DNA of 64,000 nt, taken from assembly GCA_046045965.1 (NCBI GenBank), contig JBJOKS010000005.1, forward strand, positions 64,001 through 128,000, given 5' to 3'. This document shows, in pieces, positions 8,376-24,025 of the stretch. The position numbers and the translations under genes were made by a program. The notes below the pieces were generated by a model. That model was not told where the DNA came from and ran no database searches. It was given only the letters and a program-made list of their open reading frames with translations. Numbering within the stretch: the first letter of the stretch is position 1; each line of letters begins with the position of its first letter. This DNA is from Cyanobacteriota bacterium (GTDB lineage Bacteria; Cyanobacteriota; Cyanobacteriia; Cyanobacteriales; Nostocaceae).

Positions 8376-9374
8376 ATGCAAAATTTGCAAAATTTCCGCG
8401 ATTATTACGAGATTTTGGGAGTAACGAAAGAAGCCTCTAGCGAAGAAATTAAAAAAGTTTATCGCAGGTTAGCAAGGCAATACCACCCTGATCTTAATCC
8501 AGGTAACAAAGAAGCAGAAGAAAAATTTAAGACTATCGGTGAGGCTTATGAAATTCTTTCCGATCCGAGTCGGCGATCGCAATACGACCAGTTTAGCCGC
8601 TACTGGAAGCAAAAAGGTTTTGCCGGTGGTGGTAAACAGTCACCTAAACCAAAGGGTTGGGGAGATAATCGCACCAACACCCGTACTAGTCAAGAAGTAG
8701 ATCCGAGCGAGTTTCCTGATTTTGAAAGTTTTATTAATACAGTCATCGGTGTCAGCAGTCGCAAAGATACCAGAACTACCCCAGGAAATACAGCCACTAG
8801 CGACCCGTTTCGCACTCCTAGAACTAAAGTTGCTTATACAGTTAACACCCCACCCCGTACTAATCGCAGGGATATAGAAGCGAGGTTAACTTTACCTTTA
8901 GAAAAAGCTTATCAAGGTGGTAATGAAAGAATACGTTTAGAAGATGGGCGATCGCTCGAAGTAACTATGCCCCCAGCTATGGTGACAGGTCAAACCATCC
9001 GCTTGCGAAATCAAGGCATTGGTGGTGGAGATTTATACTTAAAAATTACCGTTGACCCTCATCCGTTATTTAAATTAGAAGGTGCTAATATTTTCTGTCA
9101 AATTCCTGTAACTCCTAGTGAAGCGGTTTTAGGAGGACAAGTAGAAGCACCTACTTTAGATGGTCCTGTAAAAATGACCATTCCTCCCGCAGTTAGATCC
9201 GGTCAAAGGTTTAGATTAGCTAATAAAGGTTATCCTGGTGAAAACGGGAAACGTGGTGATCAATTAGTGGAAATTCAGATAGTTACACCGAAAAATATTA
9301 CAGATGAAGAAAGACAGCTTTATGAAAAATTGCGGGAAGTTGAAAGTTTTAAACCAAGGGCTGATTTAATTTAA
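8376..9374 (+). CDS. dnaJ: Class II DnaJ (CbpA-like) co-chaperone
   Basis: J-domain DYYEILGV...YHPDLN; DnaJ C-terminal domain (GDLYL, GDQLVEI); no zinc finger. Confidence 0.9.
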
Positions 9375-9461
9375 TTAATAGTCAGAATCAGGATGTCCAG
9401 GATTTTCAGGATTAACAGGATGATAGAGATTTGTGCGTAAATTAACCACATCTTGATTAAA

Positions 9462-9700
9462 TTATTCTTCTACGTTAAAGTCAACTTTATCGTAGATATC
9501 ACCTAACGAAATTTGACAGATAATAGATTTATTATCACCAATTTTGCAGTATTGCTCAACGTGCATTGAGTCTTGGTAAATTAAAATATATTCTTGAAAA
9601 GTGGTAATAGTGCGATAAGCAGCAAATTTTTCGTCTTGATCATAACTTTTGCTTGAATTTGATAATACCTCAGTAATCATTACTGGATTAGTAATAGGCT
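9462..9700 (-). pseudogene. Uma2-family endonuclease fragment
   Basis: NPVMITEVLSNSSKSYDQDEKFAAYRTITTFQEYILI resembles the C-terminal half of Uma2; N-terminal half absent, internal deletion apparent; 5' boundary approximate. Confidence 0.65.
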
Positions 9701-9900
9701 GAAGGCTGATAACTGAACTGCTAAGTCGGCGGAGCGTCGGCTGAATGCTTACGTAATGGCTTTCCGTCCGATTCATAAAAATTTATACAAACTTTTGAGA
9801 AAAAGCAAATTAAAACATGGCTGTTGTGGTAAATTACATCTAAATTATCTCAACTAATTACTACATCTAAATACCAATCTTCAATACTCTATTTTTTCCT

Positions 9901-10581
9901 ATGGATGAACAACTACAGCAACTACTTCAAGCATTCTTGACAACAGCGAGTGGTAGTATAGAAGATCAACAAGTTATAGCCAAAATACTGAAATTAATTC
10001 CTCATTTACCAGGAGTTCGCAAACACAATGATCCTCGGATTGATTATGAAGAAGCTTTTAATCTCTCATTGCAGGGGGTTTGGAAAGGAATAAGAAGATT
10101 TGCTGAGAACTCTTCCGAAAGGATTCTTAACAAAAGCGCAGAAATTAATCGGCGATTTTTTGTAGCTTGGTTCAACAGAATTTTAATGAACAAAATTTAT
10201 GATATGTATCGTCAGCAGGGAAACCAACCCTTCAGCTTAGATGCAAATATGAATGATGATAATACATTTTTAGATAATTTAGCAGATAACATCAATATAA
10301 ATACTATTGATAAATTAATTGAACAAGAAAATTTGAAAAAAAATCAGGAAATAGAAAATAAAATAAAATCTGATTTAGAAAAAAATTTAGAACAATTAAA
10401 CTGTCATCCAAGAAATTGCCCTGAATGTACCTGTCGAGAACTGATTAACAGGAGATTGTTAAAAAAACCTCCAGAAAGATGGCAAGATATTGGTGAATAT
10501 TTCCAAATCAAGTGGAAAGCTATTGAATCACATTGGAGAAGAACTTGTTTACCACTTCTACCACAATTAGGAAATATTTAA
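9901..10581 (+). CDS. Sigma-70/ECF-like (HetZ-like) factor
   Basis: Region-2-like DYEEAFNLSLQGVW...FVAWFNRIL, FSLD, and C-terminal HTH-like WQDIGEYFQIKWKAIESHWRRTCLPLL; this type usually precedes DUF1822 genes in cyanobacteria. Confidence 0.7.
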   Translation: MDEQLQQLLQAFLTTASGSIEDQQVIAKILKLIPHLPGVRKHNDPRIDYEEAFNLSLQGVWKGIRRFAENSSERILNKSAEINRRFFVAWFNRILMNKIYDMYRQQGNQPFSLDANMNDDNTFLDNLADNININTIDKLIEQENLKKNQEIENKIKSDLEKNLEQLNCHPRNCPECTCRELINRRLLKKPPERWQDIGEYFQIKWKAIESHWRRTCLPLLPQLGNI

Positions 10582-10613
10582 AGTTTTTTAATATTAAATC
10601 AGGAGCAAATGAA

Positions 10614-11564
10614 ATGACAACAAATGCCGAACTATTTTTATTAACCGTTCCTCTCACCGCAGCGAATCATGAATGTGCTAAAAGATTTGCGTCTGAACAA
10701 TCTTCTCGTGAGAAATTTAAACAAGTATATCTCAACACTTTGGCGGTTTTAGCAGTAGATAGATTTTTACGTTGGATGGAATTTGAAACAGACTTAAATG
10801 CAGCCGATAGTTGGAATCCCATAATTCGTCGTTTTAATAATGTAGCAGATTTAATGCTTCCTGAATTGGGAAGAGTAGAATGTCGTCCTATTTTACCTAC
10901 AGAAGATGTGATGATTTTACCTCCTGAAGTAATAGGAGATAGAATTGCTTATATAGCTGTAAAATTTGCTGAGAATTTAAAGCAAGTTGAATTACTAGGA
11001 TTTTTACCTGCTTCGGAAAGTATAGAAGAATCTGATATTATTGATCTTGCTGATTTGCAACCGTTAGAAGAATTAACAGATTTTTTGCTAAATTTAGATC
11101 CTATTTCTGAGGATGATTTTGAAGAAGAAGAGGATGATGAAACAGAAGGGAATAATTTGTCAATAGAAGTTTTAAGACGTTGGTTAGAACAAAATTATGG
11201 AGAAGGTTGGAAAGCTTATGAAGAAATACAGGGAGAGGGAGGATATCGTAGTGATGATAATTTTGAAGAAATCCGCCGTCGTGCTAAAGTTATAGAAATA
11301 GAAGATTATTCAGTTGTTTTATCAGTTTTATTTACTTCAGAACATAGAGAAGATTTTCGGTTAATATTTAAACTAGAGCCAGAAAAATTTGAATATGAAC
11401 TGCCAGAGGGTGTTGAACTACAATTATTAGATCAAAATGGACAATTAATACAAGAAGATAATTCAGAAGAACCTGAAATTGAATGGAATGCAAAAATAGG
11501 TACTTTGTTTAATATACAAATAATTCTTGGAGAAGCTAGATTTATAGAACAGTTTCAAATTTGA
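10614..11564 (+). CDS. DUF1822 family protein (candidate anti-sigma factor / protease substrate)
   Basis: KQVYLNTLAVLAV, ADLMLPELGRVECRP, DRIAYIAV, ELLGF motifs; AGGAG RBS at 10601 supports ATG 10614. Confidence 0.82.
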   Translation: MTTNAELFLLTVPLTAANHECAKRFASEQSSREKFKQVYLNTLAVLAVDRFLRWMEFETDLNAADSWNPIIRRFNNVADLMLPELGRVECRPILPTEDVMILPPEVIGDRIAYIAVKFAENLKQVELLGFLPASESIEESDIIDLADLQPLEELTDFLLNLDPISEDDFEEEEDDETEGNNLSIEVLRRWLEQNYGEGWKAYEEIQGEGGYRSDDNFEEIRRRAKVIEIEDYSVVLSVLFTSEHREDFRLIFKLEPEKFEYELPEGVELQLLDQNGQLIQEDNSEEPEIEWNAKIGTLFNIQIILGEARFIEQFQI

Positions 11565-11608
11565 TTTCAAGATTGTGTATACAATTTATAGCCAAAGATT
11601 TAGATATT

Positions 11609-14600
11609 ATGCAACCAGTAATAGTTCTATATTTTGAAACAGGAAATTTTGAACAAGGATTCGTCATTAAATTACAGAGTATAAATTTCAACCAAGAATT
11701 AGTAGGAAGATTGTCAGCAAATCCTGAAATTGAAGAAGTATATCGAGAAATAAACTCTCTATATGAGGATTATCGTAAAATAAAGAGCAAATCTTTAAAG
11801 CAAAAACTTAATGAAAAATATAGTTATTTTGAAAACCAATTAAATGAATGGTTAAACTCAGAGTCATTTCAGATTATTCGTTCAGAAATAATTCAAATAT
11901 TTACTCATAATCAAAATTCCAGATTATTTATTCAAGCAACCCATCCTGTTATCTGGCAGTTACCTTGGCATCAGTGGAATATTTTGCGCGAATTAGAAAG
12001 TGTAGAAGTTACTTTATGCTTTCCTATAACTCAACAAATTAAACTATTTACACCTTCTCCATTACGAAACCGAGTGAGAATTTTAACAGTAATTGGTAAT
12101 ACTAAAGGAATTAAGGTTGAAGATGATATTACAGAAATAAATAATATAATTATTGAAAATAAAACTGAAATTAAAATAATTCCAGAACGAAATCCACAAG
12201 AATTAAATGAGATAGAACAAGATGCATCACACAAACAACAAATACAACTTTCTCGCAGAGAATTATATGATGTACTTTGGGAATATCAACAATCAGAGAT
12301 TAACGAAGATTCAGAAAAGCAGGTAAATGAAGAATCTTTTCATCCAAAAGATGTTAAATTTAACAAGAATAACATAGGATGGGATATCTTAATATTTACT
12401 GGACATAGTAAAACTGAATGGTTTAAAGATAGAAAGGGAGTTTTACAAATAAATTCTCAAGAATGGTTGAGTATAGCAGAATTACGTTCAGCAATAAAAT
12501 CAGCATTAGCTTTTGGTTTAAAATTCGTTATTTTTAACTCCTGTGATGGTTTGGGTTTAGCTAAAAATTTGGCAGATTTACAAATTCCTTATGTGATTGT
12601 GATGCGTGAGGAAGTTCATGACAACGTAGCTTCAAATTTTATCAAGAATTTCTTAAAAGAATTTGTCCAAAATGGTGAACCAATTCATATAGCATTAAGC
12701 AAAGCAAGAACCGAATTAGCAAAAATTGAAAAAAATTATCCTCTAGCTAGTTGGCTACCTGTTCTCTGTCAAAGTTCACCAAATATAACCTTAACTTGGG
12801 AAGAATTATCACAGAGTATTAATAAAAAACCTGATTGGTCAGGATGTTGTTTAACATTATTTACGTTAGATGCTCTACAACGGTTACAAAATAATATTCT
12901 GACTAAAAATAAAGGTGTAGAGATTGAAGATATTTATGTTGCACCGAATTTAGGATTACTGCAAAAATTAAAACCAGGGGATTTACAAACTCAAGTCCAA
13001 AAGCAAGTACAAATTCCTATTTATGGTGATTATCAACTTACTCAAAAGTATCAACTAAAAGAGTTTTTAGAAAAAGTAGTTCGTCGTAGAAATAGCCCTG
13101 TTAGCCAAGGTAAGCGACTAGCAATTATTGGTGAAGCTGGAGCAGGTAAAAGTTTATTGTTACAAAGGATTGGAGATTGGATTTATTGGGATTTAAACAG
13201 GCTGGTAATTTGGGTTTCTTTAGCAAGTGTCAATCGAAAACAAACATTAGATAATTATTTACTAACAACATGGCTAAACAGAGTCAAAACAGAAGCTAAA
13301 ATGTCCTGGGTTAATCAGGAACAAATAGTAGATTTATTTGCTAGTGGAAATGTCTGGCTGTTGCTAGATGGAGTTGATGAAATGAATACTAATTTTGGTG
13401 AGCCTTTAGGAGAAATAACACGCCAGATTAGTCAGTCTAATTTCATATCTCAGTCAAATATTATTTTAACTTGTCGTCTTAATGTATGGGAAGCAAATAA
13501 AAAGATATTGCAACAGTTTGATGTATTTCGTGTTTTGGACTTTACCACAGACGATACCAGCAATATGTTTAGGACAGAAAATGGTCAGGTAACTTTTTTC
13601 ATAGAACGTTGGTTTGCTAGTAATCCCAATAAAGGACAAGAACTAATTCAAAATTTGAGAATGGATAGTAATAAACAAATTAGAGATTTATCTACGAATC
13701 CTCTGCGACTATCTTTATTATGTTTAGTTTGGGAAACAGAAACTAATACAAAGGAAAAATCATTTGAAGTTTTAGAAGAACCAGAAATTTCAAAGAATAC
13801 AGATGAAGAACAAAAGTCAGAAAAAGATAAAAGATTATCAGATTTTTTAAATTCTAGAGCGGCTTTATATGATAGATTTGTACAATCCATTTATGAATGG
13901 AAAGAGAGATTATTTCGTAAAGAAAGTAGCATTATTGTTAGAACTAATGAACGTTTAACTTTAGATCAGGGTAAAATAGAACAACTAAATCGAGATTTAG
14001 CTATTTTAGCCAAAAAAGCATTTGAACATAAACTAATCCATAAATTTACATTATCCGAATTAGAAAAAGTTGCCGAAACTCAACATCCAGTTACCAAATT
14101 TATCTTACCTGTAATTAAGAATGTAGTCGCTAAAAGTGGTATAGAACAATATGATTCGCCATTTCATATTCCTCATGTGATGGCTAGTATAATCTTAAAA
14201 TCTAATTTAAATTTAGCACTGCAATTAGGTTGGCTTAACCAAGTGGGAACATCAAGATATAACTCAAATGAACCAATTTATGCTTTCTTCCATCCCACAT
14301 TTCATCAATACTTTGCTGCTAAAGCAATTGATGAAGATGAATATCAATTTTTTATAAAACACAGTACCGTTTTACCCCCACCTTATGGAACTTATCGAGC
14401 GTTTGATGCTAAATGGCAAGAAGTAATGTTGTTATGGTTTGGGAGAGAAGATGTTTTAGACCTTTATAAACAATTGTTAATTGAAGGATTATGGAAATTT
14501 AAAGATGGATGTGGTGGTTTTTATACATATCAAGCAAAGTTTTTAGCAGCAGCAGCATTGGCTGAATTTAAAAATTGTGGTGAGTTAGAAGAGCAATTAA

Positions 14601-17140
14601 CAGACAATTATGAGAAGACTAAAGTTACGGTTGGTGAAATTATAGATGAAATTGGTAAAACCAGTTTTGTATATGAAAATGAGGCAGATGAGGATGATTT
14701 GTCTTTACCATTTAAGGCATTTCAAAAACGAGCAAAAATAGCATTTGCAAGAACTAATTCTGAATTAGCTGAAAAATGGTTAATCAATTTAATTAATAAA
14801 ATTACACTAGAATCTAGTATTGCTCCTGCATTATTTTTAGATAATCTAGCTCCTGCACATAAATCAGTTATTAAGACCTTGCTAGAAGATTTTAAACAAA
14901 CTTTTGATGAAGAGTTAAACGATAACAATAAGAAAGATGCTACAGAAAGATATAAATATAATTTAATTATAAATTTAATTTTCAATGCCAAAGGTAATAA
15001 AGAAGTAATTAATCAATTGATTAAATTTCTGTCAAATCAAACCAATGAAGAGACACAGATTGAAACATTATTAGTTTTAGGCTGTATTGCTAATACTGAC
15101 GACAGAATGACAATTAATGCAACTAAATCAGTATTAGTTATAATTGAAGCTATTGATAAAATAATTCAGTTTTTTGAAAAAAATCTGATCGGTAGCGATA
15201 GTACATCTTCCAAAATTAGCAAATATAGTAGTTACTTTGGAATTATGGCTGAAGAAAATCCAAATATTGTTAATTATTTAATTAATAAACTTACTCAACT
15301 ATTGGAGAAATTATTACAACAAACTGACAAAACAGGTTATGAACAATACATAATTTTGGAAAATAAATTACATATTGCTCAAGAATTATTAGAAATTTCC
15401 CCAGTTAATCAACTGGCAATGAATACCTTAATTGAGCTTGCTTTAACTTATACTGACTACGATAGTGACACTCTAGTTTTTGGGTGTTGGAAAAAAGTTG
15501 GTAAAGATAATCCTTTCATGATTCATTCCCTCTGTAGTTATATTCAGGAATTTGATGAAACAAAGGGAACATATCGTTTTTTCTCGAAAACTTTTGATGT
15601 TTTGGGAGAAATTGGTTTTGGTGAACCTATCGTCATTGATTTTCTAAACCACCATTTAGAAATTACAGAAGATGATTCACTGCATTTTACTATTGCTAAA
15701 AATTTATTAAAAATTGATCCAGATAATATCAAAGCTATTAATACTCTCCAGGATTTAATGAAAAATGCTCCTAGTGTAGATTCGCGTGTAAGAGCAGCAA
15801 AATTATTAGCAGAATTATCTGAACAACATCGGGAAGAAGTAATTAATACTTTAATTTCTTGGCAAAAACAATATTATCAAGAAGTAATGGAATTTTTAGC
15901 CAAATCATCTATTAATACAAACGATATAGATAAATGTCTATCTAATTTAGCAAAAGAATCTGAAGCAGAATACGGGAGAGATGCAGAAAAAAGTTTATAC
16001 TTGAGAAATCTACAGCGCAAGTTTTTCTTGATTAGTGATATTTTTGGTAATTTTACTTTCCAGAAAATTGCTCGTAATTATCCACAAGTAATTGCTGCTT
16101 TAACTGAATTAATTTTGAATATTCCTGCTTCTTACACTCAATATTCTTTAGTCAAAAGTTTAGGAATGATTGATCCTGGGAATCCTTTTTGCATTAAGAT
16201 GTGGATGCAGTTCTATGATAATGAAGTAAAAGAAGATGAGCGTAAACACATTGCTACTAGCTTTTGGTCTAGAGTTTATCATGAGTGGGTGACAGAAGTA
16301 GGGGATAGAAACCGTCGTCAAATGATTATTGACGCATTAACTAAAATTATTCAATCTACAGAAGATAAAAAATTACAGTTGGATGCTGCAAAAACATTAG
16401 GTAAGTTTGATTCTGGCAATTCGTTAGCAATTTCTACATTAATTGGCTTGGTGCTTGATGGATATCCTGGGCATTTTTCCCATCCAGTAGCAGCATTACA
16501 AGAAATTATTCAGGGTGAAAAGGCAGAGATAGTTGCTATAGAAATTGTGAGAAATTTGCAGGAATTACTCAATGAAACTCATGATAATTTGGCTAAAGAT
16601 GATAATTATGATCGGCTTGAATATTTACTGGAACTATTTTGGGTTTGTGCTGAAACTTTACCATATCCTGAGTTTTATAGGGTTTGGCGAAATCTGCCTA
16701 AAAATTATCACCTTAAACCAATATATGTGGGTCTTAGTCAGTTCATGTCTGCGGCTAATTTTGCATTTGGTATTACTTATTATATTCTCCATCCTCGTGA
16801 TTTACTAATTAAGATATTCTCGATTATATTGAGTATATTGAAAGGCTTATTTTTATTGGTTGTCAATAGCTTTTCATTTCTGATTCTAGTAATCATTGCA
16901 GTAACATATCCTATATCTTGGTTTGCTAACAAATATTTAAGAATTAATATAAAACGAACTTTAATGAGCGTATTAGGTTTATTTATAGGTATTATAGGAG
17001 GCAGTATTATTTATATTATTTTACCAGCTATTGTAATGCTTGTATCGCTACCTTTAGTATTAGGATTAGCTGTAATTGCTATTCCTATAGGTTTAATTGT
17101 AATGGCAATTATTTGGATTTGGAAAAAATTTAGACGATAA
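11609..17140 (+). CDS. CHAT protease - NACHT NTPase - HEAT-like repeat protein with C-terminal transmembrane segments
   Basis: CHAT dyad FTGHS (His codon 12404) and FNSCDG (Cys codon 12542); Walker A GEAGAGKS (~13130); Walker B LLLDGVDE; NPLRL and FFHPTF motifs; HEAT-like LGxIDPGN repeats; about 4 hydrophobic helices at the C-terminus. Confidence 0.85.
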   Translation: MQPVIVLYFETGNFEQGFVIKLQSINFNQELVGRLSANPEIEEVYREINSLYEDYRKIKSKSLKQKLNEKYSYFENQLNEWLNSESFQIIRSEIIQIFTHNQNSRLFIQATHPVIWQLPWHQWNILRELESVEVTLCFPITQQIKLFTPSPLRNRVRILTVIGNTKGIKVEDDITEINNIIIENKTEIKIIPERNPQELNEIEQDASHKQQIQLSRRELYDVLWEYQQSEINEDSEKQVNEESFHPKDVKFNKNNIGWDILIFTGHSKTEWFKDRKGVLQINSQEWLSIAELRSAIKSALAFGLKFVIFNSCDGLGLAKNLADLQIPYVIVMREEVHDNVASNFIKNFLKEFVQNGEPIHIALSKARTELAKIEKNYPLASWLPVLCQSSPNITLTWEELSQSINKKPDWSGCCLTLFTLDALQRLQNNILTKNKGVEIEDIYVAPNLGLLQKLKPGDLQTQVQKQVQIPIYGDYQLTQKYQLKEFLEKVVRRRNSPVSQGKRLAIIGEAGAGKSLLLQRIGDWIYWDLNRLVIWVSLASVNRKQTLDNYLLTTWLNRVKTEAKMSWVNQEQIVDLFASGNVWLLLDGVDEMNTNFGEPLGEITRQISQSNFISQSNIILTCRLNVWEANKKILQQFDVFRVLDFTTDDTSNMFRTENGQVTFFIERWFASNPNKGQELIQNLRMDSNKQIRDLSTNPLRLSLLCLVWETETNTKEKSFEVLEEPEISKNTDEEQKSEKDKRLSDFLNSRAALYDRFVQSIYEWKERLFRKESSIIVRTNERLTLDQGKIEQLNRDLAILAKKAFEHKLIHKFTLSELEKVAETQHPVTKFILPVIKNVVAKSGIEQYDSPFHIPHVMASIILKSNLNLALQLGWLNQVGTSRYNSNEPIYAFFHPTFHQYFAAKAIDEDEYQFFIKHSTVLPPPYGTYRAFDAKWQEVMLLWFGREDVLDLYKQLLIEGLWKFKDGCGGFYTYQAKFLAAAALAEFKNCGELEEQLTDNYEKTKVTVGEIIDEIGKTSFVYENEADEDDLSLPFKAFQKRAKIAFARTNSELAEKWLINLINKITLESSIAPALFLDNLAPAHKSVIKTLLEDFKQTFDEELNDNNKKDATERYKYNLIINLIFNAKGNKEVINQLIKFLSNQTNEETQIETLLVLGCIANTDDRMTINATKSVLVIIEAIDKIIQFFEKNLIGSDSTSSKISKYSSYFGIMAEENPNIVNYLINKLTQLLEKLLQQTDKTGYEQYIILENKLHIAQELLEISPVNQLAMNTLIELALTYTDYDSDTLVFGCWKKVGKDNPFMIHSLCSYIQEFDETKGTYRFFSKTFDVLGEIGFGEPIVIDFLNHHLEITEDDSLHFTIAKNLLKIDPDNIKAINTLQDLMKNAPSVDSRVRAAKLLAELSEQHREEVINTLISWQKQYYQEVMEFLAKSSINTNDIDKCLSNLAKESEAEYGRDAEKSLYLRNLQRKFFLISDIFGNFTFQKIARNYPQVIAALTELILNIPASYTQYSLVKSLGMIDPGNPFCIKMWMQFYDNEVKEDERKHIATSFWSRVYHEWVTEVGDRNRRQMIIDALTKIIQSTEDKKLQLDAAKTLGKFDSGNSLAISTLIGLVLDGYPGHFSHPVAALQEIIQGEKAEIVAIEIVRNLQELLNETHDNLAKDDNYDRLEYLLELFWVCAETLPYPEFYRVWRNLPKNYHLKPIYVGLSQFMSAANFAFGITYYILHPRDLLIKIFSIILSILKGLFLLVVNSFSFLILVIIAVTYPISWFANKYLRINIKRTLMSVLGLFIGIIGGSIIYIILPAIVMLVSLPLVLGLAVIAIPIGLIVMAIIWIWKKFRR

Positions 17141-17210
17141 AGATTGAGTAATTGAACAATAACATCCCTAACTTCTTGAATATCCGGTTTCCAAAACCCT
17201 TGTATATACT

Positions 17211-17250
17211 TTTTATGAAACATTTATACGTTTTATGAAATATTTATACG
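17211..17250. repeat. 20-bp tandem direct repeat
   Basis: TTTTATGAAACATTTATACG followed by TTTTATGAAATATTTATACG (1 mismatch). Confidence 0.8.
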
Positions 17251-17804
17251 TTATTGGTCAGAAATATCCAAAATTACAGTATAAGTATAAAAAAATACTT
17301 TGCATAACTATTTTAGTTTTTCCGTTGCCTAACCTAATTATATCAATTCCCCATTCTCAAACCTGATTTTACCATAGGTATTAACACATAAAATCATCAG
17401 GTTGGAAGTAGAAAACAAAAGAAAAAATAAAAATTATGCCAAGGTTTTATAAAAATGATTTATGCTGCTAACATAGAAAAAAAGAGAAGTTGATCATCTT
17501 CTCTGAAACTACAGTTTGACACCAACCAAATAACTGTTATTATTTATTAATATCTTTGCGTCTCATCTCAATTCATACTTCTGAATCTTTGCGATTACTA
17601 TTATTATCTAAATACTTACTAACGAATTAGTAGGTATAGGAAAGTGAATAGCTAATTTTCGCAACATCAAAAATTTTTCCAGTAAATGAATAAAAAGAAA
17701 ATATTAAGCCAATAGCTATCTTAATGGTTTATATATTTTCGCTGACTTAATTTTTACTATCTGAGTCGCTACCAACCAACAAACAACATCAATTATCAGG
17801 ATAA

Positions 17805-18173
17805 ATGCCAATGAATATCACAGGAAAAAAAGCCCTGTTCAACAACCAAAGCATCTTACAAAATTTTGCTTTTGGTGAAGAAATTGACGAACAGGCTGCG
17901 GAAATCATTTCTGGTGGTGTGGAGAGATTCACTCTGAAAAATGCCACACAACAAGCGATTATTTACACAGTAGATGACGTTGCATGGATCATACAACCTG
18001 GCGAAGAACATAGAGTTAGTACCGACATGGGGGGGAAAATAAGATTTGATGGAGATACTCGAGACAATAGATTAAGCGCAAAAGGATATAACCTCAGAGA
18101 TTCTGGAAGATATGTATTTTACAACTCTTCCCAGAATAATTCTAATAGAATTGACTTATATCGTGAAGCTTAA
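17805..18173 (+). CDS. Double-glycine-leader secreted precursor 1
   Basis: Leader ends EEIDEQAAEIISGG (aa 38); 84-aa core; upstream of a C39 ABC exporter. Confidence 0.8.
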   Translation: MPMNITGKKALFNNQSILQNFAFGEEIDEQAAEIISGGVERFTLKNATQQAIIYTVDDVAWIIQPGEEHRVSTDMGGKIRFDGDTRDNRLSAKGYNLRDSGRYVFYNSSQNNSNRIDLYREA

Positions 18174-18291
18174 TCTTCTGGAAAAATTGCCGTTGGTTTT
18201 TGATTAAAGCCAACATCATTTATTTCATTTGTTTGCAACCGACCGAGAAATATTGACCAATAAACTCAACTAGATTTCAGGAGTAACTGAA

Positions 18292-18657
18292 GTGAGTATT
18301 ACTATTGCCTCCTCTTTTTTACACAACCAAAGAATTTTAGAAAATATTGCTTTGGTAGAAGAAATTGACGAACAAGCAGCAGAAATCATTTCTGGAGGTC
18401 AATCTGCAAATTTGCTGAGTAAAGAAATATATGCTTTGGATGATGGAAACGAGGAACCAAAATTATACAATCCCAATAATCCCAATAATCCCAATAATCC
18501 TGAAGAACGTGAAGATCCTGAAGACCCTAATCAATCTGCTTCACAACTATTGGGAGGATCTGTGCAGCAAGCTAATTTTGGATTTGGCCAGGACAGAAGA
18601 GGGAGAAGAAGATACGGATACAGAGATAGAAACAGAAACAGAAATCGTTACTGTTAA
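18292..18657 (+). CDS. Double-glycine-leader secreted precursor 2
   Basis: GTG start after AGGAG; identical EEIDEQAAEIISGG leader end (aa 36); low-complexity core with Arg-rich tail. Confidence 0.75.
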   Translation: MSITIASSFLHNQRILENIALVEEIDEQAAEIISGGQSANLLSKEIYALDDGNEEPKLYNPNNPNNPNNPEEREDPEDPNQSASQLLGGSVQQANFGFGQDRRGRRRYGYRDRNRNRNRYC

Positions 18658-18781
18658 TTAGGGTTTGTTTATAACGATCAACCCTCAAGTTCTACAGATT
18701 CATAACAGCCAATAATCACTTTTTTGACTGCGTAAATCCTCTTCTTTCACTGTATTTTCGCTTCCAGAATTACGCCAGTCA

Positions 18782-20938
18782 ATGAAATATCAAATTGTCT
18801 TACAACACAGTGAAGAAGACTGTGGTGCAGCTGCTTTAGCTACAATTGCCAAATATTACGGACGCACTTTTACCCTCAACCGTGTACGTGAAGCTGTGGG
18901 TACTGGTGCAAGAGGAACTACTTTATTAGGATTAAAGCGGGGTGCGGAAACATTAGGATTTCATACCCGACAAGTTAAAGCTACTCCTGAACTCATTAAC
19001 CAATTAAATCAAGCGCCTTTACCTGCTATCATTCATTGGAAAGGCTACCATTGGGTAGTATTATACGGACAAAAGGGCAAAAAATATATCATTGCTGACC
19101 CTGGTGTGGGTATCCGTTACCTGACTCACCAAGAGTTAATCACAGGTTGGAGTAATGGGGTGATGTTGTTACTCCTTCCTGATGAAAGTCGTTTTTATCA
19201 ACAAGAATCAGATAATATTGGCGGTTTGGGGCGTTATTTGCAACGGGTTTATCCCTATCGGTTTATTTTAGCCCAGGCGATCGCCATGAATATCGCCATC
19301 GGTATGCTTTCTCTCGCATCACCTTTTATGATGCAGTTACTCACCGATGATGTTCTCGTGCGGGGAGATACCCAACTATTAACTACCGTCGCTATCGGTG
19401 TAATTACCCTCAATTTAATTAAAAGCGCCATTAGTTTAGTACAATCTCATTTGATTGGTCATTTTGGACAAAGATTACAATTAGGATTAATCCTAGAATA
19501 TGGACGTAAACTCTTACATTTACCCTTAGCTTATTTTGAAGGAAGACGTAGTGGAGAAGTAGTAAGTCGCATTGCAGATGTTCACGCTGTAAATAATTTA
19601 GTTTCTCAAATTGTCTTAGGATTACCTAGTCAATTTTTTATTGCTATAGTTTCCTTGGGTTTTATGCTTTTTTACAGTTGGGAATTAACTATAGCTTCCA
19701 TATTTGCATTTATGATTATTACTGGTATTAACTTATTATTCTTACCAGCAATCCGCAGAAAAACTCGCAATATGATTGTTTCTGGTACAGAAAATCAAGG
19801 TTTTTTAGTAGAAACATTTAGAGGAGTACAAGTTTTAAAAACCACCCAAGCTACACCCCAAGCGTGGGAAGAATATCAAGGTAATTTTGGTCGTCTTGCT
19901 AACTTGGGTTGGAGTACGATGCAATTAGGACTTTATAGCAGTACAATCACAAATATTCTTTCTACATTTATTAATATCGGTATTCTTTGGATTGGTAGTT
20001 ATTTAGTCATTAATCGTCATTTAACTATCGGACAATTGATTGCTTATAATAGCATGAGTGGCAATTTTCTCGGCTTTTTAAGTTCGGGAATTGACTTAGT
20101 AGATGAATTTATCACTTCTCAAATAGTTATTCAACGTCTGACAGAAGTTATTGAAGCTACCCCAGAAGATGAAAATGATGTCAAAAAGCAATGGGTAGAA
20201 ATTCCTGAAAATGCAGATATTACTTGCACGGAAGTTAATTTTCATCATACAGGTAGAGTAGATTTATTGCAAGATTTTTCTGTAATTATTCCCGGCGGTC
20301 AAGTAATTGCTTTAATTGGTAAATCTGGATGTGGTAAAAGTACCTTAGCTAAATTGATTACAGGATTATATCAAATTCAATCAGGCAATATTCGTTATGG
20401 TTGTTATAATCAACAAGATTTAGCTTTAGAATGTTTACGAAATCAGGTAGTTTTAATTCCCCAAGAACCCCATTTCTGGAGTCGTTCAATTTTAGATAAT
20501 TTCTTATTTAGTTATGCTCATATTAGTTTTGAGGAAGTTGTAAAAGCCTGTCATATTACGGGTGCTGACGATTTTATCAGCGAATTACCAGATAAATATC
20601 AAACTGTTTTAGGAGAATTTGGTGCTAATCTTTCTGGGGGACAAAAGCAAAGATTAGCCATAGCGAGAGCGATAGTTACTGATCCACCAATATTGATTTT
20701 AGATGAATCTACTAGCGCCCTTGATCCAGTGAGTGAAGCACAAATATTAGACCAGCTTTTAGAGTATCGTCACGGTAAAACTACTATTTTAATTAGTCAC
20801 CGTCCGCGAGTCATTCGTCGTGCAGATTGGATTGTGTTTTTAGAAAAAGGACGTTTAAAAATTCAAGGTACACCAGGAGAGTTGTCTAAAGTTGCTGGTG
20901 AACATTTAGATTTTTTAGATGATGTTATTTTGAGATAA
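18782..20938 (+). CDS. Peptidase-containing ABC transporter (C39 peptidase-TMD-NBD)
   Basis: QHSEEDCGAA catalytic Cys, HWVV His, Walker A GKSGCGKST, LSGGQ signature, ILDEST. Confidence 0.95.
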   Translation: MKYQIVLQHSEEDCGAAALATIAKYYGRTFTLNRVREAVGTGARGTTLLGLKRGAETLGFHTRQVKATPELINQLNQAPLPAIIHWKGYHWVVLYGQKGKKYIIADPGVGIRYLTHQELITGWSNGVMLLLLPDESRFYQQESDNIGGLGRYLQRVYPYRFILAQAIAMNIAIGMLSLASPFMMQLLTDDVLVRGDTQLLTTVAIGVITLNLIKSAISLVQSHLIGHFGQRLQLGLILEYGRKLLHLPLAYFEGRRSGEVVSRIADVHAVNNLVSQIVLGLPSQFFIAIVSLGFMLFYSWELTIASIFAFMIITGINLLFLPAIRRKTRNMIVSGTENQGFLVETFRGVQVLKTTQATPQAWEEYQGNFGRLANLGWSTMQLGLYSSTITNILSTFINIGILWIGSYLVINRHLTIGQLIAYNSMSGNFLGFLSSGIDLVDEFITSQIVIQRLTEVIEATPEDENDVKKQWVEIPENADITCTEVNFHHTGRVDLLQDFSVIIPGGQVIALIGKSGCGKSTLAKLITGLYQIQSGNIRYGCYNQQDLALECLRNQVVLIPQEPHFWSRSILDNFLFSYAHISFEEVVKACHITGADDFISELPDKYQTVLGEFGANLSGGQKQRLAIARAIVTDPPILILDESTSALDPVSEAQILDQLLEYRHGKTTILISHRPRVIRRADWIVFLEKGRLKIQGTPGELSKVAGEHLDFLDDVILR

Positions 20939-21114
20939 ATTAATTTTTACATTACTTTTTACATCTGCGTATTTTATGACTCCTCATTTTCAAACATTAG
21001 CCAAAAAATCAACAGATTATAAAATGTATTAAATATATTAAATATATTTTTTGTGTATCTATCTAATTTTGTTGTTTAATCATCATTAAAATTTAAAATG
21101 ATTGAGTTTCTGAT

Positions 21115-21235
21115 AACCAATAACTAATAACAAATAACCAATAACTAATAACTAATAACCAATAACCAATAACTAATAACTAATAACTAATAACTAATGA
21201 CTAATGACTAATGACTAATAACTAATAACTATAAT
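21115..21235. repeat. STRR-type heptamer tandem repeat (TAACTAA/TAACCAA/TGACTAA)
   Basis: Directly visible upstream of the HlyD gene. Confidence 0.85.
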
Positions 21236-21236
21236 T

Positions 21237-22739
21237 ATGGCTAAAGACTCTGACTCATTAAACCCCATTCAAACCGATGAATTTCTCCCACCTATTAGTC
21301 ATTGGACTACCTATGGTGGACTTTTTATTCTCTGTGTTTTAATATTAGCAATTCCCGTATCTGCACTGACAAAATATAAAGTCACAGTTAAAGGACAAGG
21401 AGTAGTTCGTCCATCAGGAGAATTGCGAATTGTGCAAGCGGCCACCGAAGGTCAAATTAGGCAAATTTATGTCAAAGAAAATCAAGTTGTGAAAACTGGA
21501 AATGCAATAGCTATTATTGATGACTCTCGGTTACAAACTAAAAAAAGTCAATTACAAACTAATATTCAACAAGCGAATTTACAACTTGTACAAATTCATG
21601 CTCAAATTCAAAATTTAAACTTGCAAATTAACGCCGAACTTGATAAAATTAATCGAATTATTAATGCTGCTGAAGCTGAATTGAGCGATCGCCTCCGTCA
21701 ATATCAGGATAAAAAAATTACCACAGATTCTGAACTTCAGGAAGCTCAAGCAAACGTTCAAATTGCTCAAGAAGAATTAAAAATAGGACTAGCCAGATTA
21801 AAAATAGAACAAGCAAATTTGCAATCAGCCGAAGCAGTTTTGAATACAGCAAAATCCAAGCAAGAAAGATATGAAAGCGTAGCGCAAGCAGGAGCATTAT
21901 CGAAAAATCAAGTAGAAGAAGCACAACTAGCGACTAAACAGCAAGAACAAGCAGTAAAAGCCCAAAAATCAGTAATTGAAGCCCAAAAACAAACAATTAC
22001 CAAACTAGAGAAAGCTGTATATGTTGCCATCACCAGAAAACAGCGTGCTAAAGCAGCTATTAATCCCAGTCATGCAGAAGTAAAAATCGCCATTGAACGT
22101 ATAGCCCAAGAAAAAGCAGCAGGAGAAAGTAACAAAGCAGCCTTAGAAAAAGAACGTCAAATGACAATTAAACAAAAAGTAGAAATTGAAAAACAGCTAG
22201 AACGGGATATTAGAGAACTCAAACAAGTAGACATAGAAATAAATCAGACCACTATTACCGCAACAGCGGATGGTATAATTACGCAAATAAACCTGCGTAA
22301 CCCTGGACAAACCGTGCGAACTGGGGAAGAAATATTACAAATAGTCCCCAGTGATGCGAAACAGATCATCAAAGCAGCAGTAGCATCAGAAGATAAAAAC
22401 AAACTGAAAATTGGTCAACCCGTGCAGATGCGAGTTACCGCTTGTCCTTACCCGGATTATGGTACACTTAATGGTAAAGTTGAAGCAATTTCACCAGATG
22501 CCATTGCACCGCCAAAAAAATCAACAGAGGAATCAGTTACTAATAACACCAGTCCCAAAGCCACAGTACCAGGTACAATTTATGAAGTGACCATTGAACC
22601 ACAAAACCTAGTTTTAGGTACAGGTAAAAATTTGTGTCACATTCAACTAGGAATGGAAGGAAGAGTAGATATAATTTCCCGTGAAGAAAGCGTACTGCAA
22701 TTTTTCTTGAGAAAAGCCAGATTAATAGCAGATTTGTGA
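21237..22739 (+). CDS. HlyD-family membrane fusion protein of type I secretion
   Basis: N-terminal TM, long coiled coil, ACPYPDYGTLNGKVEAISPDA and GMEGRVDII motifs. Confidence 0.92.
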   Translation: MAKDSDSLNPIQTDEFLPPISHWTTYGGLFILCVLILAIPVSALTKYKVTVKGQGVVRPSGELRIVQAATEGQIRQIYVKENQVVKTGNAIAIIDDSRLQTKKSQLQTNIQQANLQLVQIHAQIQNLNLQINAELDKINRIINAAEAELSDRLRQYQDKKITTDSELQEAQANVQIAQEELKIGLARLKIEQANLQSAEAVLNTAKSKQERYESVAQAGALSKNQVEEAQLATKQQEQAVKAQKSVIEAQKQTITKLEKAVYVAITRKQRAKAAINPSHAEVKIAIERIAQEKAAGESNKAALEKERQMTIKQKVEIEKQLERDIRELKQVDIEINQTTITATADGIITQINLRNPGQTVRTGEEILQIVPSDAKQIIKAAVASEDKNKLKIGQPVQMRVTACPYPDYGTLNGKVEAISPDAIAPPKKSTEESVTNNTSPKATVPGTIYEVTIEPQNLVLGTGKNLCHIQLGMEGRVDIISREESVLQFFLRKARLIADL

Positions 22740-22765
22740 TAGTGTTTTCTCATCATCAGGAAAAC

Positions 22766-22925
22766 GGCAGCATCCCAAATGTGTAAGTTTATTTTTTTGA
22801 ATCTTGCAATTGCTACAAAGCTTGATATGAATGAAGCGCAAAGAACGCAAAGAACACAAAGTTAAGAGGGTTCAAAAGAGTTTTTGGTGTTGCTGTGGTT
22901 ATGTTTTCAAAATTGGGATGCTCCC
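22766..22925. mobile_element. MITE (160 bp)
   Basis: Imperfect TIRs GGCAGCATCCCAAAT / AATTGGGATGCTCCC; flanking 8-bp near-duplication AGGAAAAC / AGAAAAAC. Confidence 0.7.
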
Positions 22926-23020
22926 AGAAAAACATTATCTGCGTTTATCTGTGTTTATCTGCGTTTAATGCCAAATTTCTGCACCTCACTAGGACGGGAA
23001 AAGTAGTCATAATTTAAAAT

Positions 23021-23453
23021 TTGACACTCCCCGACCTAAACGTGCGGGGATTCTTGGTTCAACGAGTCCACTTAGATTAGAACCCTTGCGGTGTCTAAGC
23101 CAGAGGTGGTTCTCTCCCCAAGCGTTACTTTCCCTCTGCCCGAAGGTAGTTGTATTGCTACAAATTTTGCTTGAGTTAATTCTGTGTCGTCTAGTACCTG
23201 TAAATCTTTTACCTACTTCCAGGTGATACCAGAACTACGAAGTAGAACCCCATAGATTTAGTTGTCAAGGTACAGATTGCCGTTAGGCAGTTAGGTTTTA
23301 TACAGGTTGATTACCGTTCCTGTTGAGATAATTATAGCATAGGTGACTGAGGCGTAAACGCCTCAACTGGTTTTCATCCCTGCTATCAAGGAAGGTTAAG
23401 TTTTGGAGCGTGGCGGAAAAACTTAACCTCAAGGGTTTTCAGCCTATTTTCTT
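23021..23453 (-). mobile_element. Non-autonomous IS200/IS605-family derivative retaining left end and TnpB omega-RNA-like right end
   Basis: Minus strand starts TTTAT|AAGAAAATAGGCTGAAAACCC; carries TnpB-tail-like remnant TFGQRESNAWGE (23112-23147); ends GAATCCCCGCACGTTTAGGTCGGGGAGTGTCAA; no tnpA or tnpB ORF. Confidence 0.72.
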
Positions 23454-23488
23454 ATAAAATAAAGATGTGATCAAAGTAAATCAAAACC

Positions 23489-24025
23489 GTGAGTCAAACT
23501 GAGACACAGCCACAAAGCAGTAACACTACAACATATTACACCCTCTTGGGACTGCATCCCTCAGCGTCAGTCATAGATATACGTCGCGCATATCGGGAAC
23601 TGAGTAAACAGTATCACCCAGATACCACAGAATTACCTGATACAGTTGCTACTGCCAAATTTCAGGAAATTAACGAAGCCTATGCTACTTTAAGTCATCC
23701 AGAGCGCCGTTTAAGTTATGATTTAAAGATAGGTTATTCTCGATTTGGGGTAATTCAAACACCAACGGATTTAAATCATCCTGTGAATAAACCCTATGAT
23801 TACTCAAAATCAATGTATTTGGATGCGAGCGATCGCCCCCTATCATCTGGAGAAATCTTTGTATTATTTGTGTTAAGCTTAACCCTTGTGGGTTGTTTAT
23901 TACTAGCGATCGCTGTCGCTGTTATACGTGGTGAACCTAGTTTACAAAACCAACTCACCCAACCGCAAATTACCCATATTTCTCAATTCCCACTCCCTAA
24001 AGAACCCAAACTCCATCTTTTTTAA
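23489..24025 (+). CDS. Small J-domain protein with C-terminal TM helix
   Basis: YYTLLGL...YHPD J-domain; hydrophobic helix IFVLFVLSLTLVGCLLLAIAVAVI. Confidence 0.85.
   Translation: MSQTETQPQSSNTTTYYTLLGLHPSASVIDIRRAYRELSKQYHPDTTELPDTVATAKFQEINEAYATLSHPERRLSYDLKIGYSRFGVIQTPTDLNHPVNKPYDYSKSMYLDASDRPLSSGEIFVLFVLSLTLVGCLLLAIAVAVIRGEPSLQNQLTQPQITHISQFPLPKEPKLHLF

Follow-up and report, generated by a model that had tools for sequence, protein, structure and literature searches.

Several described systems come close to the locus considered here. A constant EACC2 module joined to a caspase and to a variable C-terminus (CHASE2, a kinase or a STAND NTPase), encoded beside a sigma factor of the extracytoplasmic function (ECF) type and a DUF1822 protein, was reported by Kaur et al. 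(eLife 2021, PMC8195603), who proposed, in silico only, an autopeptidase activation ending in a sigma response. In Anabaena PCC 7120 the protease HetF cleaves PatU3 (PMC9457339), and PatU3 inhibits HetZ, an unusual ECF sigma factor whose chromatin immunoprecipitation peaks include hetC, encoding a peptidase-based ATP-binding cassette (ABC) exporter (PMC13342950); in the Csx29-Csx30-CASP-sigma system of type III-E CRISPR it is a CHAT protease that cuts the sigma inhibitor (PMC10028731), and protection from phage has been described for bacterial NACHT proteins (bioRxiv 2022.07.19.500537). As to secretion, Wang et al. (2011, PMC3140520) catalogued group III clusters of double-glycine (GG)-leader precursors with a short C39 exporter and HlyD, and the PteB/EbfG1-4 system of Synechococcus elongatus, which has been tested experimentally, serves biofilm formation (PMC4997328, PMC12267927). 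The stretch analysed here, hereafter the window, comprises 64,000 nucleotides of contig JBJOKS010000005.1 from a cyanobacterium of the family Nostocaceae (source genome, G000), and in it a sigma/DUF1822/CHAT-NACHT triad precedes an operon for the export of GG-leader proteins. All coordinates are window positions unless a locus is named, and the labels of genomes (Gnnn) and loci (Lnnn) are those of this analysis.

A first-pass annotation had claimed seven co-oriented open reading frames (ORFs) at 9901..22739, with neither an enzyme modifying RiPPs (peptides made by ribosomes and modified after translation) nor an obvious immunity gene, and had joined them into one circuit of a combination that it did not recognise. 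All seven ORFs are indeed present on the + strand, and no RiPP-modifying enzyme or immunity gene is found among them; the triad itself, however, had already been described in silico (PMC8195603). Both halves of the window are of known kinds, one being the caspase/ECF-sigma/DUF1822 neighbourhood and the other a cyanobacterial C39 exporter of GG-leader proteins. With good probability they are two modules of separate histories that were brought together recently. Judging from gene order and sequence, the export operon is most likely the older resident and the triad a recent acquisition in a variable slot after dnaJ. This composite origin is argued from the absence of the triad segment in G376 and G001, the lack of a triad in sister loci, the lack of an exporter beside the orthologous triad of G172, a difference in GC content, and upstream DNA that the operon has in common with triad-less sisters.

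Evidence for separate histories of the triad and the export operon

The triad lies within a segment of 7.9 kb and low GC content (9416..17327, ends approximate) which, by BLASTN and gene maps, is absent from the syntenic loci of G376 and G001, and which also holds a short fragment of the Uma2 family (restriction-endonuclease-like; 9462..9776, - strand; Pfam PF05685, E 2e-8, partial model). The complete genome G376 is syntenic with the window from dnaK to lysA, at identities of 98% for the C39 exporter, 97% for HlyD, 96% for dnaJ and 85% for precursor 1. At its locus nothing matches window positions 9416-17327, a DUF29 gene fills the slot of the triad, and the two DUF1822 matches of this genome are located more than 2 Mb from the operon. 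In the congener G001 the same operon occupies the same place without a triad (C39 86%), with three precursors directly after dnaJ; in the congeners G002 and G003 the export operon is not found at that place. The ends of the inserted segment bear no terminal repeats that convince. The GC content is 30-32% in the triad half and 36-37% in the export half, and among 2309 long ORFs the triad genes fall at the 2nd to 7th percentile and the exporter genes at the 31st to 38th.

The exporter of the window belongs to a subclade with an approximate likelihood ratio (SH-aLRT) support of 100, in a tree of 51 of the 105 exporters, the full set being taken by FastTree. Co-occurrence of triad and exporter in other genomes was a point on which the first-pass annotation had let its circuit depend, and it was not found: in the DNA fetched, no DUF1822 or CHAT triad stands beside any of the 15 sister exporters (13 from a survey of 80 exporter loci, nine of these with both flanks of at least 9 kb, together with those of G001 and G376), and the two modules are unlinked in G172 as well. 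A pairing with a short sigma or a CHAT-NACHT protein is seen at none of the 80 surveyed loci. Among 389 genomes of the family, with two candidates scored per genome, a close CHAT-NACHT orthologue was found in G172 only; its triad (56/58/57% identity) has no exporter beside it over 15 kb upstream and 8.3 kb downstream to the contig end (a 28-kb stretch), and the C39 exporters of that genome, 59-60% identical, lie on other contigs. The best relatives of the window sigma in a 401-genome sample of the order, in which G172 is not listed, are 41% identical and belong to other families. No C39 gene was found near other sigma and CHAT-NACHT relatives in the stretches fetched (L186-194, L199-202, L205-212). 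The two other related C39 exporters of the source genome lie beside CTB-family precursors (L002 9724-13706 and L003 7083-12483; G000:C15 and C8), with no triad in either 20-kb stretch.

The triad is separated from precursor 1 by a 664-bp gap, and the upstream region of the export operon (17328..17804, + strand; BLASTN) is about 92% conserved in the triad-less G376 and can be aligned with 14 triad-less sisters. It contains a sigma70-like match of 11/12 with an extended -10 (17516-17543), one of the two best in 9300-23500, where such matches overall are not above shuffles. The operon is probably transcribed from its own promoter, predating the triad, and the targets of the window sigma probably do not include this operon.

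Triads beside exporters in sister lineages

The first-pass proposal that a sigma/DUF1822/CHAT module drives GG-leader export finds no support for the triad of the window and for its exporter subclade; it is supported in sister lineages, where long-sigma/CHAT-CHASE2 linkage and type-specific motifs are found. In 41 related genomes, 38 of them with a DUF1822 match, 93 exporter matches were counted (three from G000 left out), together with 169 DUF1822 places obtained from 176 rows after split matches had been merged by hand. DUF1822 lies within 25 kb of nine of the 16 exporters at 74% identity or above, compared with 0.97 expected, and of 5/74 exporter paralogues, compared with 3.1 expected; within 10 kb the figures are 5/16 and 2/74. 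Four distances were tried and kin are not independent, so that P values overstate the effect. In the survey of 80 loci, most of which are titled Nostoc and all of which were labelled by our own hidden Markov models with spot checks against Pfam, 67 loci fall outside the window subclade; DUF1822 is present at 46 of these, a full triad at 42, CHASE2 at 43 and a TPS exoprotein at 41.

The linked triad of these relatives consists of a long sigma, DUF1822 and CHAT-CHASE2. The C-termini of the caspase proteins vary (WD40, kinase, PBP or CHASE2), and so does the orientation of triad and exporter (divergent, convergent or tandem). The exporter-adjacent DUF1822 proteins fall in several lineages, and that of the window groups with exporter-less ones. 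The window subclade nests with moderate support (86.9) among triad-linked exporters, which suggests that an ancestral link was lost, apparently in this subclade. Triads with other DUF1822 lineages are also found near some distant exporter paralogues (62-63%; L036, L037 and L035), hinting at repeated pairing.

Promoter-like motifs

The precursors of relatives are preceded by motif 1, TGCATAA-N13-TCGTA, which has the two-box form of ECF promoters. It is present in 30 of the 31 loci with the 383-aa DUF1822 type, at 58 sites that all lie on the precursor strand and mostly 150-260 bp before a small ORF; elsewhere it is found in 0/23 loci of the 393-415-aa type, 0/6 of the short type and 3/30 others, and in none of 18 stretches of the window's exporter subclade. 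Motif 2, TGAATAA-N9-12-YGCTAC, is present in 20/23 loci of the 393-415-aa type and in 0/85 others; it often recurs in tandem, with a spacing of about 72 bp. Both sets of locus counts are partly circular, the motifs having been discovered in the same loci. The conserved tandem element with TGAATAA...GCTAC stands upstream of crystallin-type GG precursors at L018 14160-16090, L022 13966-16700, L096 7883-8900 and further loci with this DUF1822 type; its copies are possibly multiplied promoters for the cognate sigma.

Motif 1 came first from a motif search and was refined by seeding. An unseeded search of upstream regions after masking yielded nothing but AT-rich patterns that hardly exceeded shuffles, and in 40 genomes the exact motif occurs 33 times, compared with 28 for a reversed control. 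In an independent test it was found 110-503 bp from seven of the nine best-scoring sigma homologues outside the training set and within 1.5 kb of none of 35 weaker ones; one further homologue among the nine has a variant one base longer. None of these independent loci has a C39 gene in 20 kb; the motif there is directed mostly towards RTX-repeat proteins, otherwise towards PPC proteins or, in one case, a CHAT-CHASE2 gene. The clusters of L216-L224 (long sigma, DUF1822, TPR-CHAT, TPS, CHAT-CHASE2 and DUF928) have motif 1 towards divergently encoded RTX-repeat proteins. Since it accompanies the closest sigmas in exporter-less loci too, motif 1, as judged from sequence, tracks the clade of the sigma, and the cassette for GG export would be one among several secreted outputs. 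It is thought probable that the long-sigma/DUF1822/CHAT-CHASE2 modules of the sister lineages drive neighbouring GG cargo or RTX-repeat cassettes from a promoter specific to the sigma type.

Neither motif is present in the window. A loose look-alike of motif 1 at 17301, obtained with a pattern relaxed post hoc, scores -3 bits on the weight matrix, compared with 20-35 for training sites, and was rejected, as was a third candidate motif, TAGGTAGC, which is not specific to any triad type. Comparison of the sigma upstream regions (window and G172) with the DNA upstream of the precursors revealed no common motif, the scores of local alignment ranging from 24 to 37.

Alternative explanations

Several points weigh against a recent joining of two separate modules. 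The same distribution would result if G376, G001 and the other sisters had lost the triad, which is less parsimonious; several of the sister loci have short flanks, a close orthologue of the triad is known from one genome only (G172), and the G000 assembly is 92% complete. Since linkage is strongly enriched in the clade, as the 25-kb figure for the closest exporters attests, and since the DUF1822 proteins near these exporters represent several lineages, the landing of a new triad directly upstream and in the same orientation may not be due to chance. The gap that follows the CHAT gene yielded no terminator-like site on the + strand before precursor 1, and read-through into the precursors is thus possible. 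A target site of the window sigma could also have been overlooked. Adjacency and shared orientation, the enrichment in the clade, the several DUF1822 lineages and the lack of a terminator-like site would agree with the exporter being a plug-in output, the operon having been taken over by an NLR-type triad through a new promoter or read-through, in effect the circuit of the first-pass annotation as an event of one lineage; yet the precursor upstream region is unchanged compared with the triad-less G376 and shares no motif with the sigma upstream regions, the look-alike at 17301 scores far below the training sites, and the orthologous triad of G172 has no exporter, all of which makes such a re-recruitment quite improbable. 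Improbable to a like degree is a swap of sensors, in which an NLR-like NACHT-caspase would have replaced the ancestral CHASE2-caspase module at an interchangeable exporter cassette and would now free a sigma that switches on the export of small beta-domain proteins; if true, the sensing of danger inside the cell would be coupled, in a filamentous cyanobacterium, to a signal or matrix that is secreted.

The triad may also be seen as a stand-alone NLR-like module of anti-phage defence or cell death, with CHAT as the main effector and the sigma branch minor or decayed. Such a role would suit the NACHT-HEAT-NCC-H architecture, known from anti-phage NACHT proteins (bioRxiv 2022.07.19.500537), the patchy distribution, the low GC content and the CHAT-NACHT relatives of L205 and L211, which have no recognised sigma gene alongside; it is nevertheless unlikely, with sigma and DUF1822 intact and conserved in G172 and no PADLOC match among the five proteins scanned. 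A different objection concerns the relatives, whose linkage could reflect no more than joint residence in secretion islands that vary and common descent of closely related Nostoc, without regulatory coupling anywhere. The preponderance of Nostoc among the 80 loci, the varying orientation, the three loci that have motif 1 although no sigma of its type was noted in them, and the near equality of the exact motif with its reversed control all speak for this. Against it, motif 1 follows the sigma type and not the exporter, being present at L034, whose exporter sits on a distant branch; it lies near the closest sigmas of exporter-less loci and not near the weaker ones; and the two triad types have mutually exclusive motifs (30/31 vs 0/23 for motif 1, 0/31 vs 20/23 for motif 2). 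Absence of coupling is accordingly given little probability. The recent union of an older export operon with a newly acquired triad is retained as the best explanation of the window.

Genes of the triad and a proposed mechanism

The first gene of the triad (9901..10581, + strand) codes for a short, divergent ECF-like sigma factor of 226 aa, assigned from weak profile and structure matches and 56% identical to its G172 orthologue. Its family scores are weak (TIGR02937, E 6e-5, below cut-off; Pfam Sigma70_r2, E 0.015; NF041236, E 0.001, below cut-off), unlike those of the long sigmas of relatives, which pass TIGR02937. The AlphaFold2 model is all-helical with two lobes, and the top rows of a Foldseek search are mostly sigma factors, all at E>=0.014 and none at E<=0.001. 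Neither the sigma alignment nor that of DUF1822 had a significant match in sequence searches of the PDB. The DUF1822 protein (10614..11564, + strand; 316 aa from the ATG, the ORF being open from a TTG at 10533; Pfam E 1.4e-56) is, by analogy, a candidate anti-sigma factor and protease substrate. Its feature match of 0.83 to a 'putative PatU' cluster in the Atlas is weak and serves as a lead only.

The third gene (11561..17140, likely ATG at 11609, + strand) encodes, according to domain matches and motifs, an N-terminal domain followed by CHAT, NACHT, HEAT, NCC-H and C-terminal membrane segments. CHAT spans residues 116-398 with the catalytic His282 and Cys328 present, Walker A and B motifs are found at 524-531 and 600-607, and hydrophobic segments at 1747-1857. 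About 110 residues precede CHAT and align with CHAT-CHASE2 proteins; no EACC2 model in Pfam or NCBIfam matched, and the EACC2 label refers to architecture only. A PADLOC 2023 scan, with a library that is incomplete, matched none of five window proteins to curated anti-phage models. After the stop codon of this gene there is a short AT-rich tandem duplication (17211-17250), probably a chance event or a junction scar. The source genome has a second short-sigma/DUF1822/CHAT triad, followed by a gene for a CAAX (Rce1-like) protease (L001 8365-12918; G000:C2), with no C39 gene in its 20-kb stretch.

By analogy with HetF-PatU3-HetZ and Csx29-Csx30, a scheme of NACHT-gated CHAT activation, DUF1822 cleavage and sigma release is reasonably plausible. 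NACHT-HEAT would sense a cue inside the cell or at its membrane, for example phage, oligomerise and activate the CHAT protease, which would then cut DUF1822 and free the sigma factor. On the export side, by analogy with PteB/EbfG, the exporter would cut the GG leader and export a small beta-sandwich protein and a low-complexity peptide, the outer-membrane channel presumably being encoded elsewhere.

The export operon and its cargo

Precursor 1 (17805..18173, likely start 17811, + strand) has a GG leader and an 84-aa core predicted to form an eight-stranded beta-sandwich, and precursor 2 (18292..18657, + strand, GTG start), 78% identical to its G376 orthologue, has a low-complexity acidic/Asn-Pro core with an Arg-rich tail. 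The leader EEIDEQAAEIISGG is common to both; a loose leader pattern scan of the genome found no further small ORFs with it. They are followed by a peptidase-containing ABC exporter with C39, ABC membrane and ATPase domains in one chain (18782..20938, + strand; domain matches, Cys14/His90 and ABC motifs) and by an adaptor of the HlyD family (21237..22739, + strand; domain matches). The window thus has the traits of its exporter family, namely C39 with Cys/His, a membrane domain and an ATPase, adjacent small ORFs with GG leaders, and HlyD. Neither precursor matched a model in Pfam or NCBIfam, a known RiPP or bacteriocin precursor family, or the CTB-family model. Directly after hlyD a short multi-copy repeat is found (22771-22924), and a little further on an element present in multiple copies on many contigs of G000 and its congeners (23021-23460), which looks like a mobile-element remnant; neither is at this place in G376.

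The leader end ISGG is invariant among the aligned relatives (34 of 34), while the cores vary. The core of precursor 1 is predicted confidently (eight strands; block predicted local distance difference test score 81-94) and resembles generic beta-sandwiches only: it has no match in Pfam, NCBIfam or PADLOC and none in Foldseek at E<=0.001, and similar domains reported by the Atlas inside CAP, M10 peptidase and esterase proteins are all under the naming bar. A named family was sought and rejected, the best VIA hit (Z 7.8, the extracellular domain of PepT1) being at the level of common sandwiches. Among 24 small proteins scanned from the loci of relatives, beta/gamma-crystallin domains were found nine times above and once below cut-off and a CVNH domain once; other small proteins of these loci are Gly-rich or of low complexity. 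At L030 (14795-15901) there are three near-identical tandem precursor copies, one with GC replacing the GG motif. Since the cargo includes beta-domains, and crystallins in relatives, a surface, matrix, adhesion or binding role seems more likely than that of a bacteriocin.

Significance and comparison with known systems

The window offers a cautionary lesson, in that a shared orientation in one genome had tied together two modules of different history. What is new and can be put to the test is the CHASE2 system of the sister lineages with its candidate promoter: triads beside the same exporter family, with a promoter-like motif of their own, are a direct way to test what triads switch on. The relatives' loci supply a candidate promoter for one sigma clade as well as candidate targets, namely secreted beta-domain proteins with GG leaders, RTX-repeat proteins and, in one instance, the gene of the receptor. 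Should this be confirmed, the sister triads would parallel HetF-PatU3-HetZ in their logic, with the cell surface or matrix under their control, and folded domains such as beta/gamma-crystallins would be among the cargo of C39 exporters. In a literature search no experimental study of sigma/DUF1822/CHAT triads was found, nor a link of triad and exporter, nor the candidate promoter of the CHASE2 system; subscription papers and the supplements of Kaur 2021 and Wang 2011 lay outside this search and may bear on the latter two.

Of the secretion systems, PteB/EbfG and the group III clusters of Wang et al. resemble the export half in that GG-leader precursors are accompanied by HlyD and a short C39 ABC exporter but by no modifying enzymes. 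Their cargo differs from the predicted beta-sandwich of the window, whose precursors do not match the CTB family, and from the beta/gamma-crystallins of relatives; no link to CHAT or DUF1822 is described in the parts of those papers drawn on here (PMC3140520, PMC4997328, PMC12267927). Csx29-Csx30 is alike in its CHAT protease, which cuts a sigma inhibitor, and the weak match of the window sigma to NF041236, below cut-off, is a further resemblance; its trigger is RNA-guided, and no CRISPR gene is found among the seven ORFs of the window. Bacterial NACHT proteins, common in cyanobacteria, likewise combine NACHT with HEAT and NCC-H, have membrane segments and use a peptidase as effector; a coupling with sigma and DUF1822 is absent from the portions of the preprint used (bioRxiv 2022.07.19.500537). 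HetF-PatU3-sigmaHetZ follows the same logic, a protease cutting the inhibitor of an ECF sigma (PMC9457339, PMC13342950), but no NACHT or CHASE2 sensor is fused to it, its promoter consensus as given there, TCCGGA-N16-17-TGNAN, differs from the motifs found here, and homology of DUF1822 and PatU is a lead only. The EACC2-caspase system of Kaur et al. is like the triad of the window in forming a three-gene unit, with a caspase near the N-terminus bearing His and Cys, a variable C-terminal sensor, and adjacent DUF1822 and sigma-like genes. It differs in the activation proposed, by autopeptidase in that model and here by cleavage of DUF1822, and section 9 of that paper names no export module, target genes or promoter (PMC8195603).

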